A stretch of DNA of 24,689 bases. Source: a virus. Position 1 is the first letter of the stretch. Every line of letters begins with the position of its first letter. The translations under genes were made by a program, and so were the position numbers. Positions 695 through 23,681 of the stretch are shown piece after piece. The notes beneath the pieces were generated by a model. The model was not told the origin of the DNA. It saw only the letters and a program-made list of their open reading frames with translations, and searched no databases. Location: UHGV virus genome UHGV-1601690. One strand, 5' to 3'.

Positions 695-3600
695 TTATGC
701 GTATTGTTGGATGACGGCCAGAACGTCCGCCACGTTGTGTTTTGTCTCGATAATCCACCAGTTGCCCGGGAAATCGCTGTTCTTCGCCTTCGCTGGCAGC
801 CAGCGAGCGCCGAATTTCGCCTTGATTGCGTCTTTCGCACGGAAAAGAACGCCTTTCATGCCTGAGGCTTCCTGAAGCCCAAATACCTCGCCAGCGGCGA
901 ATTTTGGTGCGTACATCATCTTCAGGTCGGCGGTGGATACGCGATAATTCAGACCAAGAGACTGAGCTATGCTGGTGGCATCACCCTGTATTGATGATAA
1001 CTCTTCTTGTTTCTCGTTTCTGGCGGCAATTTCTTCCTCCGTGATGTTGCCAAGGGCCAGGTTTATCCGATCAGCGTCGGCCTGTTTCTCTTCATCGGTG
1101 CGCCCGGCAAGAACCGTGTTAATTCTCTGCAATATCTCCACATGATTCTTGCGCATGCTGAGCAATTCCGGCGTAACCTCGTTAAGATCCACCAGCCCAA
1201 GGATGGCAAGGTCGGAAAACATTGATACCAGGTTGTAGGTCATGCGATAGCTGAGTTGGCCATAGGCTGATGGCAACTGCACCGCATCCATTTGATAGGC
1301 ATCCATAAATTTAGAGCCGTCGTTTACGACATCCGCAATTGCAGGTGTGATTTTCCCTGTGGTGGCGGCCTCCCTGATTGCTGTTACCCACGATTGAGTC
1401 AGTGCGGCGACTGCATGATTCAGATTGGCTTCCCGTTCTGCTGCGATGCGCGCGCTTGCTGCGTCCATTGCCTGCTTGATCTCGGCTTTATTGCTGTAAA
1501 TGCCAATGGTGCCAAACTGTGCTGTGGTGATCTCATAATCTGACGCCCGGAACTCATGGGTACCGAAAATGGCATTGGTGACCTCAAGTTCAGAATCCCC
1601 GTTACGAGTAGCCCCCTGGCTTGTTTTCTCCGGCATTTTTGCGATCGCATCCGCTATTTTCTCCTGAATTGCTTCAGGGGATAGCGTATCTCCGTATGAC
1701 GCGATTACATCGCCATAATTGGAGCCAAACAATTCAACCAGGAATGTTTCTGCCGAACGGATCTGGCGGTTATTCCCTTCCGACATCATACCAAGCACCC
1801 ATTTTGCAATTGACGACTTCAGCGCGCCGTCACGGCGATCCGGGTAAACCGCATGCTTCAGTGGGTCCGTATAGGTACCAACAAAATCAATGCTATAGCC
1901 TGACTCTGTAGTCTGAACGCCGTATGAGTCAGTGATTTTGATCATGCCGCGCTGCTGGAAACGGTAGAAATCGTCACAGGAAATGATGTCGTTAATCCCG
2001 GCGATGGAGACGCCACCACTGATTTTCTGCATAACAGCATCTTCATCGGGAGTTACATCCACCTGTTTATCCAGCGTCTTCACATCCCAGTTACCCGATT
2101 TGGTGCCTTTGAAGGTAAAGATGATCTCCACATCTGCGCGCTGGCTGTCGAAGTCCAGCGACTTAATGCGAACGATATCACCAGCACAATCATAGTATTG
2201 GCCTACACGCCATGAGCGATCGCCGATAACAAGGAACTCACTCGCATGGTTAACCAGGTCAGGATCAACATCCAGAATGCCTTTATTTATTGCATCCTCC
2301 ACCAGCGGGCGCAGGCGTTTGATATCCGTCGCGGCCTTCTGAGTACGGTTCAATAATTTCTCATAGCGGGAGATGGCTTGAGTGATATTAGCCTTGCGCT
2401 GAATGGCGCTTTTCAACGACGCGCGATACTGTGCTAACAACGTACGGTCTGTGTGATGGACGCTACCCCAGCGGGCCTTCCAGTCTGCATTATCAGCTGC
2501 TTTGGCCATTACCGCCTGTTTGAATTTAGCTACCTCGGCGGTGGTCTTTTCAAGTTCCGCTTTACTTCGCTCTAATTCAGCGGTAAGAGCCGCAACATCC
2601 TCGCCAGCTGCATGTTGCGCCTTGATGTAGTTCTGAAGGTCGATAGCGGCCTGTTCTTTCTGGCGGGCGCGTTGCACGGCTTTCGCCTTATCCATTTGAA
2701 CCTGCATCATTGCCAGACGTTCGCCATCATCCTTAGCGGTATACATCTGCATTTCGATCATATCGTTGGCGTCGGCGTTCTCCATTTCTGACTTATCTGA
2801 ACGGAGGATATCGGAGATCCAGCCTGCTTTACGCTTCAGCGTCTTCAGTCGGTATTCATCGAAAGAACCCTTGCCGCAGTAGTAGTGAACGCGAACGCTT
2901 GCACGGTTGGAGCCAACTCGGGCACCGCGACCGTTTCGTTGCGCAATACTGGCTGGAGTCCATGGCAACGTCAGATGATGGATGTCAGTCGTTCCTCGAT
3001 GCAGGTTGATTCCCACCTCTGCCTTTTTGTTGCAGATGATGATCGGAGTCCGGCCCTCCTGGAAGTCGGCTGCAATCTTTTCCAGACCGCCCAACGACAT
3101 TTCATTTTGCTGCGCGATATAGGCGTCATACAGAGCCATTTGCTCGTTGTATTTCGCTATCTGTGCATCTGTTGGTTCATCCGGTAACTCTTTCGGCGGT
3201 TTAACCGCTTTCAGTTTCTTACCGGTTTTACCTGCCTCGGCAACCGTCTGAGCATTCAGTATCCCCACCTTTGAAGGTTCAAGGTTAAGAGCATTGCAGA
3301 TAATGCGCTTGAGCTTCTGGTGCTGCGTTTTTTCATCGGTGAAGATGATTTGCTTACCTTCCGGGAAAAACTCCTTCAGCGTGGCAATCAGCTTCGCGTA
3401 TTTGGGCGTAACGGGGTGAGTTACGGTCTGTTCGTCAATGCCAAACCTGGCCAGGCGCTTATTCACTTCCTGCTCGAACGCTTCCGGAACCTGCAACTGA
3501 ATAAACTCGCCCTTATCTATCAGGGAGTATTGCGATTGCTGCGTGATTGAATCATCACTGTCGTCGTCTTCGCTGGTGGCTTGTTTAGGCAAACTGTCCG

Positions 3601-9260: not shown

Positions 9261-10528
9261 ACGGCAAACATTCCCAATTCACAGAGTCCGACCTAAACCA
9301 CATGAAGCGGCTTAGGAATTACAGACTCTCCAAGGGCTAACACTGCCAGCCCGGCAGCTTTTATATTACGGGCCGCGTTAATATCACGATCATGCTCTGC
9401 GCCACATTCCGGGCAGTGCCATTTACGAATATTAAGAGGCATTTTTTGCATGGTGAAGCCGCAACTGCTGCAACGTTTGGAAGAAGGGAAATACTGGTCG
9501 ATAGCGACAATGCTACGTCCACCCCATTCTCCTTTGTACTGGAGTTGGCGTACAAGTTCGCTCCAGCCTGTGTCAGCTATTGCTTTAGACAGCTTCGGGT
9601 TACGGATCATGTTTTTCACTTTAAGGGATTCAACGCAAACAACTTGGTTTTCGTTAATCAGTTTGCGGGACAACTTATGCAGGTTATCCATCCGACAATC
9701 GACTATTCTCGCGTGGAGGCGGGCAACCTTTAAACGTGCTTTGGCGCGGTTCTTTGAGCCTTTTTGTTTCTTGCTCAATCTGCGCTGTAACACTGCTAAT
9801 CGCTTCGCGTATTTAGCGTTGTGTCGAGGATTGCCAGTTTTAAAACCGGTATCGGTGACGAACAAATCTTTTAAACCAATATCAATGCCGACCGTGGAAA
9901 CGGTGATCGGCAGTGATACAGGCTCAAACTCGCAGAGACAGGATACAAAATATCGTCCGGCAGCATCCCTGGTGATAGTGACAGTGGATGGAGCAGACGG
10001 CAACGGACGGCTCCAGCGAACATCTAACGGCTCTTTGCCATGTACAGCTTGCCGTCACGGTATTTAAATGCGCTGGCAGTTAGTTCTGCGGCCTGTTTAT
10101 GCCGCTTGCTCTTAAAAACTGGGTATGCAGCACGCCCGGCGAAAAAGTTAGCAAAAGCCGTTTGTTGGTGGCGCAGAGACTGCTGGAGGGGGACGCAGGA
10201 AACGTCATTCAGCCAGGCGAATTCTGGTTCTTTTTTCAGTGCCGTTAATTTGGCGCTGGCTTGTGCATAGCCGACCCTCTCATGGCGTGCGTAGTACGCA
10301 TCGGTGCGCCAGCGAAGGAGGCTGTTATAGACAAAACGCACACACCCAAAAGTCCGGGCTAATAGCTCGGTTTGTTCGGGAGTTGGATAGAATCGATATT
10401 TATAGGCACGCTTCATGTTCTATATAATACATTGAAACTAATGAGTATATAAATGAATACACGGACGAAAATGTTATCAAAGCCAATATACCAACAGACA
10501 TTAGGTAAGGTAGCTGGAGGGCAATATA
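9261..10528 (-). mobile_element. tnpB-only IS200/IS605-family insertion between prt and pro (ends not determined; coordinates are the surrounding intergenic limits)
   Basis: No Y1 tnpA-sized ORF on either side. Only 32 nt separate the convergent prt and tnpB stops, so the right end must abut or overlap the prt 3' end. Confidence 0.5.
9293..10416 (-). pseudogene. tnpB: tnpB (IS200/IS605-family OrfB, RNA-guided nuclease family), split by a frameshift
   Basis: N-terminal fragment 10024-10416 (MKRAYKYRFYPTPEQTELL...) and C-terminal fragment 9293-10003 (RuvC-like region and CxxC...CxxC zinc finger, KRCSSCG...HCPECG) lie in different frames. The C-terminal frame is open upstream and reads PLDVRWSRPLPSAPSTVT, continuous with the N-terminal fragment if one base is restored near 10027-10033. 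Confidence 0.85.
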
Positions 10529-11548
10529 ATGACTGATGTTTTGAAAACGGTCACTGACCGCTTTTGTCTCTATAGCAATGCTCGAAAAGGTCGCCAGAAC
10601 GGGCGACAGTATGTATTAAGCGCGGTTAAGACCATGCTTGAAAGCAAGGAAACTCAGGAAGGTTTACGCCTTGGAGAGCTTTTCGGCTATTACGGTCACG
10701 GTCGCCGACAGCTGACCGGCAAACTGGAAGTACCAGAAACCAGCGTAATCATGGTGGAAGGTCGCCCGGTCATAATCGACAATGTTCCAGCGTGCCGAAC
10801 AGTGGCTATATCTGTTGACGACAACGGCATCGTTACCCATACACAGGAAATTCTTAATACAGAGCCGGGGAAAATCGTCGCCGCGATGATCGAAAGCCGT
10901 GCTGGTGGCTGGAGCTGGGCCACTGGCGGGCGCGAGTCCGGGAAAATCGCTGTAACCACCAGCTTCCATGGTGTGGATTATGTGACAACGCCGAACTATA
11001 TAAGTCTGGATCATCCTGCCAGCGCCGGAATGTTTGAAAGCGCGGATTCTAAATCTTTACTGGCAGAGTCCCTGGCGGCGCATGGGTACTCCGACGAGTC
11101 AGTGCAGGCCGTTATATCCCATTACGGCAAAATGGCTGAACTGGAAATGATGGTGGAGGCGACAGAGCGTACGGCAGAACTGGAGACCGCACTACTCGAA
11201 AGCCAGGGCCGCCACCTCGAAGCAATGGCCAAGATCGCAGATGCTGAAGCGCGAATTGCTTTGCTGGAGGAAACAGCGGGTATCCGCGACGATGTGCTGG
11301 CAGCAATGCAAGACGAACTGGATAACCTCCCGATCTTCGTCTCCGCCGCCCAAAAAGACGCATTCCGCCTCAAAGAACCTGGTGATGCAAAAATCGTTGC
11401 CACACTTTTCGAATCTCTGATCAAAGTTGGCGCGCGCAACTTGCCTGTCACTAAGAAAATTAAAGAGGTTCCGCAAGCGGCTAACGTCCAGGCACCGCGT
11501 GAGACAAGCATCATCACGTTTAATAATTCAATCAATCCGTTCAAATAA
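10529..11548 (+). CDS. pro: Putative prohead protease/scaffold (P1 Pro position)
   Basis: 339-aa ORF, ATG preceded by GGAGGG. C-terminal third is coiled-coil-like (AELEMMVEATERTAELETALLES...). Assignment by synteny. Confidence 0.55.
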   Translation: MTDVLKTVTDRFCLYSNARKGRQNGRQYVLSAVKTMLESKETQEGLRLGELFGYYGHGRRQLTGKLEVPETSVIMVEGRPVIIDNVPACRTVAISVDDNGIVTHTQEILNTEPGKIVAAMIESRAGGWSWATGGRESGKIAVTTSFHGVDYVTTPNYISLDHPASAGMFESADSKSLLAESLAAHGYSDESVQAVISHYGKMAELEMMVEATERTAELETALLESQGRHLEAMAKIADAEARIALLEETAGIRDDVLAAMQDELDNLPIFVSAAQKDAFRLKEPGDAKIVATLFESLIKVGARNLPVTKKIKEVPQAANVQAPRETSIITFNNSINPFK

Positions 11549-11561
11549 CCACCAAAAATAA

Positions 11562-11587
11562 CCCCGGCGGCTGCCGGGGTTCTCGTT
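11562..11587. terminator. Bidirectional rho-independent terminator between pro and the lyz-side genes
   Basis: Stem CCCCGGC / loop GGCT / stem GCCGGGG (11562-11579), followed by TTCTCGTT on the plus strand and by TTATTTTTGG on the minus strand. Confidence 0.6.
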
Positions 11588-11595
11588 AACTATTA

Positions 11596-11847
11596 TCACC
11601 TTCGTCTGCGTGCCATATATTTGCGCACCGCGCGGCGTGGACAATCTGAAGCGGTTTCTTTCTGCTGCATCAATCTCGCGGCCATGCTCAAAAATGTCAG
11701 GCACAGCCGAAGCCCAGCATACAATAGCGGTTCCAGTGGCCACGTTTCATTAAGCACATATACCGCCATGAAAATCGAGTCGAAAACTATCGCTGCCAGC
11801 GATAACTTCATTGTCGAAAGTCTGCGGAGCTGCCGGAGTTTATTCAT
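11596..11847 (-). CDS. Small two-TMD membrane protein with a basic C-terminus, holin/pinholin-like, overlapping the lyz stop
   Basis: 83-aa ORF; ATG at 11845-11847 overlaps the lyz 3' end by 8 nt. Hydrophobic segments LSLAAIVFDSIFMAVYVL and PLLYAGLRLCLTFLSMAA, then RRAVRKYMARRRR. Confidence 0.4.
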   Translation of the reverse strand: MNKLRQLRRLSTMKLSLAAIVFDSIFMAVYVLNETWPLEPLLYAGLRLCLTFLSMAARLMQQKETASDCPRRAVRKYMARRRR

Positions 11848-12397
11848 TGACCAGTCCCGTCAGGCAAAGCAGGCGTTCTTTTTCACGGCGAATCTTTAAA
11901 CCTCGCAGGGGCACGCCGTTACTGTTCACAAAATCAGGGAGATGGTTACACATATTCACCCATTCCCCTTTCTGCGCCCACTTGTGGATGGACGTTTCGA
12001 CTCGCATGCCTCGCGCTTTGCTGTAGTAGGTCCGTAAGCTATTGCATCCCATATTGAATGCCGCGCTTGTCATTGCACTGAAGGCATTATCGGGCATGTC
12101 TTTGCCCCGGAAGTGCTGATTAATACAGCGTTCAGCGATCAGGATATTCTTTTCCCAATCAGCGGCGATTTGCTGGTCGGTTTTTCGCACACCCGGCGTT
12201 ACCCCGTGTGTATTACCGATCCCGTCAGTCCATACCCCCGCCGGGCACATGTATGGATCACGTCGGCAACCTTCAGCGTTTCCGATAAGCTCAAGCCCCG
12301 CCTGGTTGGTTCGCACATTGCCATTACCCATCACGATGGTAATCATCACCGCGATAGCGCAAATTGCACCGCCTCCTGCGGCTGTTTTTCCCTTCAT
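11840..12397 (-). CDS. lyz: SAR (signal-arrest-release) endolysin, T4-lysozyme-like muramidase
   Basis: N-terminus MKGKTAAGGGAICAIAVMITIVMGNG is a Gly/Ala-rich SAR domain and matches my recollection of P1 Lyz. Catalytic region ELIGNAEGCRRDPYMCPAGVWTDGIGNTHG. Internal ATG at 12395-12397 gives 185 aa; the longer 218-aa track ORF is an upstream extension. Confidence 0.9.
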   Translation of the reverse strand: MKGKTAAGGGAICAIAVMITIVMGNGNVRTNQAGLELIGNAEGCRRDPYMCPAGVWTDGIGNTHGVTPGVRKTDQQIAADWEKNILIAERCINQHFRGKDMPDNAFSAMTSAAFNMGCNSLRTYYSKARGMRVETSIHKWAQKGEWVNMCNHLPDFVNSNGVPLRGLKIRREKERLLCLTGLVNE

Positions 12398-12530
12398 AAA
12401 GACCTCATAAGCGAATTTTTTACGCTCCAGGACAAACACCCATTCACAGCCATTACCGACTGACTCGATCCCTTTAGAAGGCACAGGATAATGCAAATCA
12501 CTTGTTAGCTACGTTTCAAAGATATACATT

Positions 12531-13188: not shown

Positions 13189-13303
13189 GAAGAGGCAATT
13201 TTATTGCCTCTTCAAAGGTGGCATGAGGGTGCCACCTATATGCGGGCAGTGACATCACTCCCTTCCCGCATATTCTTACCTACCAAAATTAGAATTGGTA
13301 GGT
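13189..13303. repeat. Cluster of four perfect inverted repeats in the porin 3' region
   Basis: GAAGAGGCAAT-TTT-ATTGCCTCTTC (13189-13213); GGTGGCA...TGCCACC (13217-13236); ATATGCGGG...CCCGCATAT (13238-13273); ACCTACCAA...TTGGTAGGT (13278-13303, spanning the porin stop). Confidence 0.6.
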
Positions 13304-14436
13304 CATACCAACAGCAACGATGTTGTCGGTTGCAACCTCAGATGCTTTGGTAAATTCACTTTCATCAATCAGGTTGATCTTGTAGTCAACGAAAGCGGAC
13401 ATATTTTTGTTGAAGTAATAAGTCGCGCCTACGTCGATGTATTCAACTAGATCCTGGTTACCGAACGCACCAATATTTTCACCGCGAGAGTGCAGGTAAG
13501 CGATGGACGGACGCAGGCCGAAATCAAACTGGTATTGAGCAACAGCTTCAAAGTTTTTCGCTTTGTTTGCGATAAAGTCATCACCGAAGACTGTCATATT
13601 CTGAGTTTCAGAATAAGTTGCAGCCAGGTAAATGTTGTTTGCGTCATATTTCAGACCAGTAGCCCATACTTCAGCTGTTTTACCAGAAGCATTCAGAGAG
13701 CTTGCATTAGCATAGGATACCTGTCCATCAGTACGGTCAGATTTTGCATAAGTTGCGCCAATGCCAAATCCTTCATAATCATAAGTAGCTGACAGACCGA
13801 AGCCATCACCATTAGATTCAACTACGTCGCGGCCTTTCCAGTTGTTCACTTTTGCAGCACTATCATTTTTACCCTGATACTGCAAAGCAAAGTTCAGACC
13901 ATCAACCAAGCCGAAGAAATCATTGTTACGATAGGTCGCGACGCCAGTAGCACGCTGGGTCATAAATACATCAGTCTGAGTCCAGGTATCTCCACCAAAC
14001 TCCGGCAGCACGTCAGTCCAAGCGCCAACATCATACGCTACACCGTAGTTGCGACCATAGTCGAGCGAACCATAATCGCCAAAGCGAAGCCCTGCAAACG
14101 CAAGACGAGTTTTGTCTTTATCAGAACCTTCAGTTTCAGTACGGTTACCTTTAAATTCGTACTCCCACTGACCAAAACCGGTTAACTGGTCATTAATCTG
14201 AGTTTCACCTTTGAAACCAAGACGCATGTAGGTCTTGTCGCCATCTTTAAACCCATACGAGCATAAGTTTTATCCCCGTCATCACTAGCTGAAGAAGAGA
14301 AGTAATGCTCTGCATTAACTTTGCCGTACAGATCCAGTTTGTTACCGTCTTTGTTATAGATTTCTGCCGCTTGTGCAGACATTGCCATCAGGACTGATGC
14401 TGCAACCGCAGAAAGTGCCACTGTGATTTTTTTCAT
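13289..14436 (-). pseudogene. OmpC/OmpF/NmpC-family general porin (phage-borne cargo), interrupted by a frameshift
   Basis: Signal peptide plus mature N-terminus ([40 protein letters not shown]...) in ORF 14182-14436; remainder of the barrel to the C-terminal ...VGMTYQF in ORF 13289-14227, in a different frame. Confidence 0.85.
14210..14280. repeat. Diverged 35-nt direct repeat at the porin frameshift
   Basis: Minus-strand copy A gacggggataaaacttatgctcgtatgggtttaaag ([12 protein letters not shown]) is followed directly by copy B gatggcgacaagacctacatgcgtcttggtttcaaa ([12 protein letters not shown]). The copies differ mainly at third codon positions, and the 35-nt offset shifts the frame. Confidence 0.7.
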
Positions 14437-20753: not shown

Positions 20754-21365
20754 TTAATTTCCTGCTTTCAGTTGCTTAAGACGACGTTTGAGTTCGCCAT
20801 TCCGTGCCTTTTCGTTATTGAGTCGGCCCGTCTCCTTATCCAGCTTCGCCCGCAAATCAGTGATCTGCTGTTGATTGAAAGACACCGAATTCTGCGCGGA
20901 CTTATAAGCGGCAACCACCTGAGCATTCCGCTGTTTTGCTTCTTGCAGGCGCTGAAAGTTGGATTTAACTGCCGGTTTCTTGTCTACCGGATTGGCAACA
21001 CGCTTCGCTTTGGCGATCAGTGATTTCTGGAATTTTGCGGAGTTTTTGCGGGCCGCCTGTCCCATGGCGGTACCAAGCGTCTTGATATCCGGCGACTGAG
21101 CGTTAGGAATAGCTTTTCCATTCAGTTTCACAGACGATATATCGCCAGTATCGTTTACCTGTATGGCAAGAATTTGTCCGTCGTTAAGAACCAGCTTTGC
21201 GGTTTTAACTTTAACGCCATCTTTCGTTGTTGCGCGGTTGCTGGAGTCAACCTCAATTACCGTAACCCCGGTTTTATTGATCGCCGCGATAAGGGATTTC
21301 AGCCCCTTTTCATTAACCTGGTCAAAATCGACCGTTGCATACTTATTTTTCGTCATCTGACACAT
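20754..21365 (-). CDS. hdf: Hdf-like protein (homologue of a DarA fragment)
   Basis: 203-aa ORF with local similarity to DarA (NSAKFQ region) and a coiled-coil-like C-terminus. The second ATG at 21356, preceded by AGGA, is the more likely start. Confidence 0.7.
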   Translation of the reverse strand: MCQMTKNKYATVDFDQVNEKGLKSLIAAINKTGVTVIEVDSSNRATTKDGVKVKTAKLVLNDGQILAIQVNDTGDISSVKLNGKAIPNAQSPDIKTLGTAMGQAARKNSAKFQKSLIAKAKRVANPVDKKPAVKSNFQRLQEAKQRNAQVVAAYKSAQNSVSFNQQQITDLRAKLDKETGRLNNEKARNGELKRRLKQLKAGN

Positions 21366-21786
21366 CCTGTGCGAGATTTATTACGTAACTTCTGCGGATT
21401 TGCTGAGTAACAGGGAAAATCCGATACAACGGGTTAATGAACGAGTCACCATGCGTAACCATGACGTTGAAATGCCACAGCCGTTCTCCTTTACCCATAT
21501 ATTCAGTGGGTATGTACAACCATTCACTGTTTTCGCCCTGTTCAGCCGACGTCAGACAACGTTGTTCGCCTTCAATCACTGTCGTTGGCTTCTGAACATC
21601 GCGGATCCAATATCTGACCGTTGCGCCGCGCAAAAACGGGAATTTAGACCGGTATTTGAACGGCACCCGGATGAAGCCCTGTTTAATTTCCACATCACCA
21701 AGTTCTAAATGCGTGATGTCCTTGCGTTTTAGCAAATAGCGATCGGCTAAGGCTAACGCAAGAACGCATACACCCCAGCCAATCAT
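21343..21786 (-). CDS. lydB: LydB-like holin antagonist
   Basis: 147-aa ORF overlapping the lydA stop by 4 nt. Assignment by position in the P1 lydA-lydB-darA operon. Confidence 0.65.
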   Translation of the reverse strand: MIGWGVCVLALALADRYLLKRKDITHLELGDVEIKQGFIRVPFKYRSKFPFLRGATVRYWIRDVQKPTTVIEGEQRCLTSAEQGENSEWLYIPTEYMGKGERLWHFNVMVTHGDSFINPLYRIFPVTQQIRRSYVINLAQDVSDDEK

Positions 21787-22112
21787 TTCCCACCTCCCTT
21801 TTTCACCAAACTTGTAAGAACATTCAGAATGCTATCGATATTCACTCGTTTCATCCCTGAAATCACCTCATGACCGTTATTGCTGGCTATCGTTACCATT
21901 AAGTACGTAATTGATAACTCCCAGCCCTCGTGTTGCCCCAATAGGTACGCCACCGCGCCAGCTGTCACTGCAACAAAGATCTCCGTAACCAATCCCAACA
22001 AATTGCCAGACTGGCGACCATCTCGGACATCCATCAGGAACGTGCCTATCCCACCAATTACTGAAAGCAGGAGCGCAATAGCAACTGGAGCTAATTCCTG
22101 TGTGTCAAGCAC
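21783..22112 (-). CDS. lydA: LydA-like holin
   Basis: 109-aa ORF, GTG start preceded by GGAGGG. Two to three hydrophobic helices (LAPVAIALLLSVIGGIGTFLM; LLGLVTEIFVAVTAGAVAYLLG) and a basic C-terminus. Confidence 0.7.
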   Translation of the reverse strand: MLDTQELAPVAIALLLSVIGGIGTFLMDVRDGRQSGNLLGLVTEIFVAVTAGAVAYLLGQHEGWELSITYLMVTIASNNGHEVISGMKRVNIDSILNVLTSLVKKGGGK

Positions 22113-22181
22113 AAGTTCCCTCCTACGTTGTCAGGAGGTAATGGTATGCAAAGTAACTTCTCAACCGGTCATGTTGCTTGA

Positions 22182-22213
22182 CATCCTCCACGTCCTTTAG
22201 AGCGTGGAGGATG
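22182..22213. repeat. Perfect 11-bp-stem hairpin adjacent to the start of the intron-like region
   Basis: CATCCTCCACG - TCCTTTAGAG - CGTGGAGGATG; ends at 22213, and GTGCG begins at 22215. Confidence 0.75.
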
Positions 22214-22214
22214 T

Positions 22215-23060
22215 GTGCGCCCAGCATGGGCGCGATCTTGGAGGTGAAAGCCCTCCCGCGAGCTGACCACAGCGAGCGAAATGAAGTGCAACTGCGTGAG
22301 GGCGACCGGGCGTGGGGAGGAAGCACGGAATGAACCCGTGAGCCGATGAACGAGAATCGGATATGAGGCGCGATGGAGCAAGGCGAGCAGGCACATCACT
22401 GCGAAGCTTTCGTGGTCAAGTCGAAGTCGCGCAGATCCGACGGTTGTGCGGGGAAGGATCGCGTTCTTACCTGGGGAGTTCTCGCCTCATGCCTGAAAGG
22501 GCAACGTCGTAAGACGGAGCGAGAAGTCAGCAGAGGCCGTTGTAGTCAGGACTCCGACGAAGGGCCGAACGAGAAGGAAAGCCAGAAGATATGACTCTTG
22601 ACAGGACATTGCGTCAGAAGCCGGGGAAGCCCGGTACGGACCCGCATGCCGGGTGGTGTGGCAGGGGCGCAGCCCTTGTGCTCCCCCCTATGCCGATCAA
22701 GCAGAACATTGTGCTGGGCCTCTGACGCAGCTCCTTGATGGTCTTGGCATCGTGCTTAAGTGGATTGGTGTCGTCCCTGATAGGATCATGGAGGCAGAAT
22801 GAAACTCAAAAATCCGGGATAGCACGCAAAACAGGCTGCACAAAAAGCGCAGGTTGCGTAGGAGTGAAATCCCGCTCCCAAAAAATGGTGCAGAAGTTGC
22901 GGCAGTGGTCATCCGACGCACTGGAAAATAACAAACCCGCCGTGACCAGAATCGGAGGCCTGAGGGAGTGACCGAAAAACCGGACAACCCAGGCAGCAAA
23001 TACCCGCTGGATGAGGCATGGTTCCGGCAGATAATACCGAAAACCGCCAGACACACTGGA
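22215..23060 (+). ncRNA. Candidate 5' fragment of a group II intron (domains I-III and start of IV), truncated
   Basis: Starts GTGCGCCCAGCATGGGCGCG (compare the remembered Ll.LtrB 5' end GUGCGCCCAGAUAGGG). About 850 nt that look GC-rich by eye, with stops in all frames and many short helices; ends abruptly where AT-rich DNA begins near 23060. No reverse-transcriptase ORF or domain V present. Confidence 0.4.
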
Positions 23061-23117
23061 TAATCAGTAGAAATAATCCATTAAAGTTATTATAATAATT
23101 GGTCACATTATTATATT

Positions 23118-23681
23118 ATGCTGAACAATAGAAATATGACTATTAATGAACTTAAAGACTGTATTCACTATGAAGTAATTGGTAGCGAGCGTCCTTTCTC
23201 TTGGCGAAAAGCAATTGTTCGCGCAATAAAACATAGAAGAGTTCGTTATTTATTTTGGTGGCGCATATCAAAATATCTTTTTGATAAAGGCGGATACAGG
23301 CGAAAGGTTGCAGGGAAAATAGAACGCTTCATTCTTGACAAATACAATGTAACCGTTCCCTTAACGGTAAATATAGGGAAAGGGTTTGACATATCTTATC
23401 TCAATGGCGTTGTTATCGCTCACAAAGTCACAATCGGTGAAAATTGTTCAATTAAGCCCGGAGTAACTATTGGACTTCGCGGGGAATTTAATGACATGGA
23501 TATTGTTATAGGAGATAATGTGACCATTGGTTGTAATGCCACCATTCTTGGTGGCAAAGTGCGTATAGGAAACAATGTCACAATAGGTGCTCATGCATTG
23601 GTATTGCATGATATTCCTGATGATTCAACATTCATCACTAAATTTCAGTCTGAAGTTATCTGCTCGTCCTCCCGCACATAA
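23118..23681 (+). CDS. Hexapeptide-repeat (left-handed beta-helix) acetyltransferase, probable polysaccharide O-acetyltransferase; AT-rich cargo
   Basis: 187-aa ORF with consecutive hexapeptide repeats ([24 protein letters not shown]...[35 protein letters not shown]). AT-rich by eye, preceded by an AT-rich promoter-like stretch containing TATAAT. Start may be the second ATG at 23136. The 3' end overlaps the tfa 3' end convergently. Confidence 0.8.

Follow-up and report, generated by a model that had tools for sequence, protein, structure and literature searches.

The gene downstream of the SAR endolysin gene in a P1-like phage-plasmid is very probably the pinholin gene lydD, and its product may belong to a wider family, DUF7940

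The small membrane-protein gene at positions 11596-11847 (minus strand) of the window, by which we mean the whole stretch of 24,689 nucleotides analysed here, is very probably lydD, the pinholin gene of P1/P7-type phages. The initial annotation had described its product, from the DNA letters, as a pinholin-type partner of the SAR endolysin, and the published experiments on P1/P7 LydD support that description (PMC9025707). The finding is correct but already known: annotation of lydD goes back to the P1 genome of 2004, and its role as a pinholin was demonstrated in 2022. The present analysis also ties a Pfam domain with no assigned function, DUF7940, to this experimentally studied lysis protein, the domain being found at the holin position of varied lysis cassettes. 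In E. coli and Salmonella, resistance genes are commonly carried by P1-like phage-plasmids, which makes it practically useful to have the lysis genes of these elements annotated correctly.

The lyz-lydD operon and the lydD reading frame

The source of the window is, to judge from its sequence, a P1/P7-like phage-plasmid. The whole window shows about 98% DNA identity to phages P1 and P7 and 98–99% identity to many E. coli phage-plasmids, and the synteny pro-lydD-lyz-ssb is kept relative to P1/P7. An 83-codon frame directly 3' of the endolysin gene lyz was found exactly as the initial annotation had it, with an ATG start, and comparison with the P1 genes 3' of lyz, which had been proposed as a check, identified it as the annotated lydD of P1 and P7. 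In both phages (AF234172 and AF503408, respectively) the same frame is annotated lydD, 'putative holin', and lies between lyz and the convergent pro/proB. LydD encoded here is identical to P1 and P7 LydD (AAQ13988.1 and AAQ07492.1) at 83/83 residues and matches PHROG 21930, 'holin', with an E value of 2.7e-58 (residues 1-83 on an 84-position profile). The protein has 83 residues against 84 in P1/P7, a change of CGA to TGA having removed the fifth terminal Arg. Because the P1 codon for this Arg is TGA here, the gene ends in three different tandem stops, TGA TAA TAG (11590-11598, minus strand). The exact 83-residue sequence occurs on at least 1000 contigs, where its NCBI name is 'holin', and it is therefore a common natural allele.

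A word-indexed protein search with LydD returned only P1-like relatives of at least 77% identity together with frameshifted variants. At 90% identity LydD is grouped with Lyz in a chimeric cluster whose representative is a 185-residue lysozyme, which is why the homology search missed the LydD cluster. In three database proteins lydD is frameshifted, at differing points, into the lydE frame or the third frame. Programmed frameshifting from lydD into lydE was considered for these proteins and rejected, since the junctions fall at different positions, each in one or two sequences, and have the appearance of mutations or of errors in sequencing.

In the late lyz operon lydD comes second, the order being the promoter LPlyz, lyz, lydD and a terminator. 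P1 and P7 share this promoter and terminator, the 8-nt overlap of lydD with lyz and the convergent pro gene. LPlyz (12485-12503, minus strand) is an Lpa-dependent late promoter with -10 and -22 elements that drives the operon, and it matches the P1 AF234172 feature at 19/19 positions. The gene lyz (11840-12397, minus strand) codes for a SAR endolysin of 185 residues, a T4-type phage lysozyme with an N-terminal Gly/Ala-rich signal-anchor-release segment. The protein is 98.9% identical to P7 Lyz over 185 residues and matches Pfam Phage_lysozyme (3.2e-22), and its N-terminal hydrophobic peak lies at residues 7-23 with 47% Gly/Ala/Ser/Thr. A 218-codon version of lyz starting at TTG was discarded as a merely mechanical maximum ORF. 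An overlap of 8 nt between lydD and the lyz stop, described earlier, was confirmed by direct reading: lyz ends at 11840, and the bases ATGAATAA (11840-11847, minus strand) are shared by the two genes at what would be a translational-coupling junction. A weak GGGA Shine-Dalgarno-like element stands 7 nt upstream. The overlap is also 8 nt in P1 and in the Klebsiella relative, and 4 nt (ATGA) in the Salmonella relatives.

The operon had been said to end at a bidirectional terminator at 11562-11587. Terminator scanning and folding located an intrinsic terminator hairpin at 11560-11581 (minus strand), with a 9-bp GC-rich stem, a 4-nt loop and then ATTTTTGG, which lies 15 nt past the end of lydD and between lydD and the convergent pro. 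The hairpin itself was thus recovered at slightly different coordinates, and the claim of bidirectionality held only in part. On the plus strand the hairpin folds at -18 kcal/mol, better than 200 of 200 shuffles; a 56-nt segment of the minus strand folds at -19.5 kcal/mol (z -2.1), and 8 of 200 shuffles fold as well. A proper T-run follows the stem on the minus strand only, the plus strand having CTCGTT, so that as an intrinsic terminator the hairpin is good for the lyz-lydD transcript but weaker for that of the convergent pro.

The pattern of substitutions points to purifying selection on the lydD frame. Over codons 1-79 all of the nucleotide differences from P1 (7/7) and from P7 (10/10) are synonymous. 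P1-like elements of Salmonella and Klebsiella encode LydD proteins that are 77–80% identical, with the frame open over its full length, and comparison with these relatives gave 36–44 synonymous against 24–29 non-synonymous differences. A chance ORF is ruled out by the substitution pattern together with the keeping of the frame in relatives of 77–80% identity. The pairing of lyz with lydD and their overlap are conserved in the Salmonella and Klebsiella elements and in a relative of 45% identity. In the Salmonella and Klebsiella relatives (L003-L007, 3233-3763, minus strand) the 3' end of lydD overlaps a convergent ProQ-domain gene by 23 nt, and a RepL-type replication gene (repL) follows; these neighbours differ from the terminator-pro arrangement of P1.

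A second frame, lydE, has 71 codons with a GTG start (11528-11743, minus strand) and lies out of frame in the 3' half of lydD. It is extremely improbable that lydE is the coding gene here, or that lydD and lydE are a holin/antiholin pair made from overlapping frames. The P1 annotation of lydE as 'putative antiholin' speaks for such a reading, as does a transcriptome paper that lists lydE as up-regulated in a dksA host, but RNA-seq reads over lydE are indistinguishable from lydD mRNA. The substitutions show selection on the lydD frame only: in the overlap 3/3 differences from P1 and 6/6 from P7 are non-synonymous in lydE and synonymous in lydD. The lydE frame is also interrupted, by a premature stop in P7, where it is unannotated, and in the Salmonella and Klebsiella relatives, where it ends after 32 or 43 codons and has little sequence similarity. 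In the window it passes through the terminator hairpin and the T-run and ends 21 nt inside pro, so that the terminated transcript would be without a lydE stop codon. Searches of the lydE translation found no Pfam match and no hydrophobic segment, and no phenotype was reported from its deletion (PMC9025707) or from CRISPRi knock-down (PMC10695390). The frame is neither conserved nor visibly selected and is probably non-coding; it still stands as 'putative antiholin' in P1 reference records and shows no sign of being a gene.

LydD as a membrane protein and as a pinholin

The two hydrophobic helices and the strongly basic C-terminus ascribed to the protein in the initial annotation were both recovered. 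Hydropathy analysis (Kyte-Doolittle, 17-residue window) placed TMD1 at about residues 15-32 with a score of 2.10, and TMD2 at about residues 41-57 with a weaker, moderate score of 1.63 and a central Arg47. Residues 58-83 contain 10 basic and 2 acidic residues (net +8), the N-terminal residues 1-14 contain 5 basic residues, and the loop at 33-40, NETWPLEP, contains 2 acidic residues. This distribution of charges would fit an N-in/C-in topology under the positive-inside rule. The predicted layout, with two TMDs, N-in/C-in ends and a short periplasmic loop, is that of class II holins. AlphaFold2, given five homologues, modelled the protein as a helix-turn-helix (H3-35 and H40-82) with modest confidence (mean pLDDT 67.7). 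Stable insertion of helix 2 into the membrane is a prediction, because of the TMD2 score and the central Arg. Met1 and Met13 are both invariant among the P1-like homologues. A dual start at Met13, a device by which S21-type pinholin genes yield both holin and antiholin, was considered and seems unlikely, as no ribosome-binding site or Shine-Dalgarno-like sequence was seen ahead of Met13; in the wider family position 13 is merely hydrophobic (L/I/V/M), and the N-terminal residues before it belong to the conserved domain.

A small inner-membrane protein encoded beside a SAR endolysin is the setting of a pinholin, and it is found here in LydD, with its two predicted TMDs, and Lyz, with its anchor and lysozyme domain. 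Studies of P1/P7 LydD have reported that lysis of E. coli is faster and more complete with a plasmid carrying lyz and lydD than with lyz by itself, no other phage protein being needed (PMC9025707). Inducible expression in E. coli had been proposed in the initial annotation as a check of lethality, and such an experiment has been published for the essentially identical P1/P7 protein: when lydD was induced alone, growth stopped and viable counts (cfu) dropped, and the cells were not lysed (PMC9025707). Experiments also showed that lydD together with the cytoplasmic lambda endolysin R gave no lysis, either from plasmids, where cell death alone was seen, or in P1 with lyz replaced by R (PMC9025707). 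A lydA mutant of P1 forms plaques, and a lydA lydD double mutant forms none (PMC9025707). Since LydD speeds the action of Lyz, kills alone, fails with lambda R and suffices without LydA, its assignment as a pinholin is supported, and it was already known. In addition, lysis by wild-type P1 shows the shortening and rounding typical of pinholin/SAR-endolysin pairs, with polar rupture once lydC and lydD are inactivated (PMC9025707). LydD is accordingly very probably a pinholin, the 'pin' in this name being based on genetic and morphological evidence from the 84-residue protein of P1/P7.

The contribution of LydD depends on conditions. LydA acts as the main holin in liquid culture with shaking, where LydD has an accessory part (PMC9025707). 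P1 without lydA does not lyse E. coli in liquid culture despite an intact lydD (PMC9025707), and LydD is therefore conditional or accessory. A genome-wide CRISPRi screen has reported lydD to be non-essential (EOP about 1) and lyz to be essential (EOP 0.05) (PMC10695390).

The sequence of events in a cell may be pictured as follows. Ribosomes that end translation of lyz would re-initiate on lydD, so that both proteins would be made together late in infection. LydD, as a helical hairpin whose two ends face the cytoplasm, would insert into the inner membrane and build up there, and many small lesions would then collapse the proton-motive force. Depolarisation would free the membrane-tethered Lyz from the bilayer, and the enzyme would refold to its active form all around the cell. 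The LydD lesions would be too small for a folded cytoplasmic endolysin. The pore would probably be lined by the conserved polar face of LydD helix 2 (Y43, R47, T51, S54 and R58), possibly paired with D23 of helix 1.

The behaviour of LydD with lambda R also bears on an alternative to the pinholin reading, in which LydD would be a canonical large-hole holin that redundantly duplicates the function of LydA. Two TMDs, N-in/C-in ends and a basic C-terminus make up the class II holin layout too, the database name of LydD is simply 'holin', and DUF7940 relatives adjoin endolysins without an obvious SAR segment (Muramidase, DUF5675 and an M15-like peptidase). However, the failure of P1 carrying R in place of lyz to lyse on LydD alone, and the death without lysis given by the R and lydD plasmids, are not what such a holin would give (PMC9025707). 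LydA and LydC, the class II holins of P1, are likewise small two-TMD lysis proteins that serve the same endolysin as LydD, but their genes lie 10 kb away, within the dar operon or next to it, and they are unrelated to LydD in sequence, with no cross-match to either. Unlike LydD, they support cytoplasmic R (PMC9025707) and therefore form large holes. The large-hole reading of LydD is highly improbable and has already been largely refuted.

A further reading is that LydD makes no lesion and has instead a releasing or regulatory role, comparable to that of the Mu 'releasin' gp25 or of an antiholin, in which it extracts the SAR domain of Lyz by protein contact or modulates LydA. Releasins were reportedly described by Chamblee et al. 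in 2022 (mBio). The small contribution of LydD in liquid culture without LydA, and the variation of its effect with host and growth condition, would suit such a role (PMC9025707). Its N-terminus carries a charge of +5, and in phage 21 added N-terminal charge turns the pinholin into an inhibitor (PMC9025707). The drop in colony-forming units caused by LydD alone nevertheless fits a membrane lesion and is unexpected for a pure release factor (PMC9025707). The lydA lydD double mutant is plaque-less while the lydA single mutant is plaque-forming, and LydD therefore promotes lysis and does not inhibit it (PMC9025707). A lesion-free LydD is thus very unlikely.

The prototype pinholin, S21 68 of lambdoid phage 21, resembles LydD in its small size, its two TMDs and its basic C-terminus in the cytoplasm, and its gene too adjoins that of a SAR endolysin. 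Both are also lethal alone and support SAR but not cytoplasmic endolysins (PMC9025707). Comparison of the LydD-family alignment with S21 71, whose query sequence was checked and is 100% identical to phage 21 OL657228, showed no homology (hhalign probability 0.2%), and LydD has no match among the Pfam holin families. The order of helix hydrophobicity is reversed, with 2.10 for TMD1 and 1.63 for TMD2 of LydD against 0.49 and 2.02 for S21. Gly/Ala/Ser/Thr residues make up 29% of TMD1 in LydD and 65% in S21, and the weakly hydrophobic, SAR-type TMD1 is not found in LydD. A small-xxx-small zipper is present in TMD2 of S21 but absent from residues 41-59 of LydD, and the absence of a glycine zipper has been reported by the authors of the P1 study too (PMC9025707). 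Ahead of TMD1 there are five positive charges in LydD and one in S21 68. The order of the genes differs as well: in lambdoid cassettes the holin gene precedes the endolysin gene, whereas lydD follows it. LydD thus clearly departs from the anatomy of S21, on which the mechanistic model of pinholins is founded, and the authors of the P1 study came to the same view (PMC9025707). Formation of pinholes by the S21 route, with TMD1 moving out of the membrane, is therefore unlikely for LydD. LydD works like a pinholin but is outside the S21 family, and the term 'pinholin' covers at least two unrelated designs.

Relation of LydD to DUF7940 and PHROG 1356

LydD matches Pfam DUF7940 (PF25612) with 22.9 bits and an E value of 1.3e-4 (residues 5-62 on positions 7-63 of the 63-position profile), which is below the gathering threshold of 27 bits. 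Among 1.84 billion representative proteins, only 14 were matched by a profile of P1-type LydD sequences, including ten proteins of 54–82 residues with E values of 8e-18 to 4e-4. DUF7940 was matched by 12 of the 13 aligned relatives (best 5.2e-13) and PHROG 1356, 'holin', by 10 of the 13. An intermediate protein, 45% identical to LydD and scoring 49.5 bits against DUF7940, is encoded by another P1-like element of 94 kb, where its gene follows a SAR-type lysozyme gene with an 8-nt overlap. In the LydD-family alignment, with both helices covered, A19, D23, E34, Y43, R47, T51, A57 and R58 are invariant, and the conserved residues of helix 2 fall within an arc of 120 degrees on a helical wheel. By way of the intermediate sequences and the shared invariant residues, LydD can be recognised as a divergent relative of DUF7940. 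Proteins of DUF7940/PHROG 1356 are of the same length class as LydD and have the same two-helix layout. Compared with the distant relatives, LydD has lost an N-terminal 'IPNW' motif and gained a long Arg/Lys-rich tail that is absent from them.

The DUF7940 gene abuts or overlaps a peptidoglycan-hydrolase gene in 8/8 viral loci examined, which came from single-protein queries. The neighbouring hydrolase belongs to Phage_lysozyme in four loci (one of them a single in-frame ORF), to Muramidase in one and to DUF5675 in two, and has a weak M15-peptidase match in one. When an alignment of five LydD-family sequences was used as the locus query, 600 pattern matches were obtained and none was confirmed. 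A literature search found no paper that mentions DUF7940 by name, and LydD is the only member with a published function. A search of PDB sequences with the LydD-family profile gave no match at E values up to 1.

These results tentatively suggest that LydD is the sole experimentally characterised member of a larger, unrecognised family of lysis proteins, DUF7940/PHROG 1356, a view that we hold as plausible though not quite probable. The members would be membrane proteins of two helices, the first holding an invariant Asp and the second an invariant Tyr-Arg-Thr-Ser-Arg face, and their genes lie directly next to endolysin genes of various enzyme types, in one case in frame with a SAR lysozyme. 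Permeabilisation or depolarisation of the membrane would take a route other than that of the phage 21 pinholin, with no SAR-type TMD1, no glycine zipper and charges inside the bilayer. If this is true, a new name as a pinholin/holin class could be given to DUF7940, and P1 genetics would be an entry point to its mechanism.

Other features of the DUF7940 cassettes were also observed. In locus L013 one ORF of 241 codons (2501-3226, plus strand) holds DUF7940 (residues 2-67) in frame with a SAR-type Phage_lysozyme domain (residues 108-230), and it is either a natural holin-like/endolysin fusion or a gene pair with an internal start. Apparent spanin genes usually follow the DUF7940 cassettes, as seen by eye in the ORF translations. 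In seven loci (L009-L013, L016 and L021) a putative protein of single-TMD coiled-coil type, also recognised by eye, is encoded within the 0.3–0.5 kb upstream of the endolysin/DUF7940 pair. Three of these upstream single-TMD-like proteins were searched against Pfam and gave no match. This upstream protein may serve the DUF7940 cassettes as their true holin or as a factor of releasin type.

Other lysis genes in the window and differences from P1 and P7

The genes lydA and lydB, placed about 10 kb away in the initial annotation, were found at 21343-22112, 9.5–10.3 kb from lydD. The gene lydA (21783-22112, minus strand), which codes for the canonical holin of the unlinked dar operon and partner of the same endolysin, has a product of 109 residues that is 100% identical to P1/P7 LydA. 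The adjoining lydB (about 21343-21786, minus strand) codes for an antiholin, the LydA antagonist, of 147 residues and 99.3% identity to P7 LydB. Both genes and the dar operon are driven by the late promoter LPdar (22141-22159, minus strand), a 19/19 match to P1 LPdar. The gene at the endolysin had been regarded as a second holin-type gene of the phage. It is of holin type, but the count needs correction, since P1 has three such genes (lydA, lydC and lydD), though lydC is missing from its usual place here. Neither lydC nor cin was found in the window by tblastn, and both are absent from their P1/P7 position; the visible lysis set therefore consists of Lyz, LydD, LydA and LydB. In this lineage LydD would act beside LydA and LydB, apparently without LydC.

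Homology to P1/P7 ends just past LPdar, at 22179, and the next 2.5 kb hold a group II intron fragment, a hexapeptide acetyltransferase gene and tail-fibre genes. The intron fragment is a 5' portion (D1-D4) within 22180-23117 (plus strand) at the P1/P7 lydC/cin site, with Rfam matches at 22296-22466 and 22484-22565 (96.9 and 41.6 bits), and no ORF for an intron-encoded protein was found in it. About 30 E. coli plasmids or chromosomes carry the same arrangement at 99.9% identity. The hexapeptide-repeat acetyltransferase gene (23118-23681, plus strand; RefSeq 'serine acetyltransferase') is flanked by the intron fragment and a tail-fibre assembly gene and is absent from P1/P7.

Two further features lie closer to the operon. 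An insertion of about 1.28 kb separates prt/proA from pro/proB, which overlap by 8 nt in P7. It carries a split TnpB-type gene (IS200/IS605 OrfB; 9293-10416, minus strand), with HTH_OrfB_IS605 at 10024-10416 and OrfB_IS605 plus a Cas12f1-like TNB domain at 9293-10003. The insertion alters the C-terminus of the portal-region ORF and splits apart two essential head genes. An nmpC/ompC-like porin gene of the P7 type (13292-14436, minus strand) aligns as two overlapping pieces, residues 1-68 and 53-371, which suggests a short duplication or a frameshift near 14233-14245, and the gene is possibly a pseudogene.
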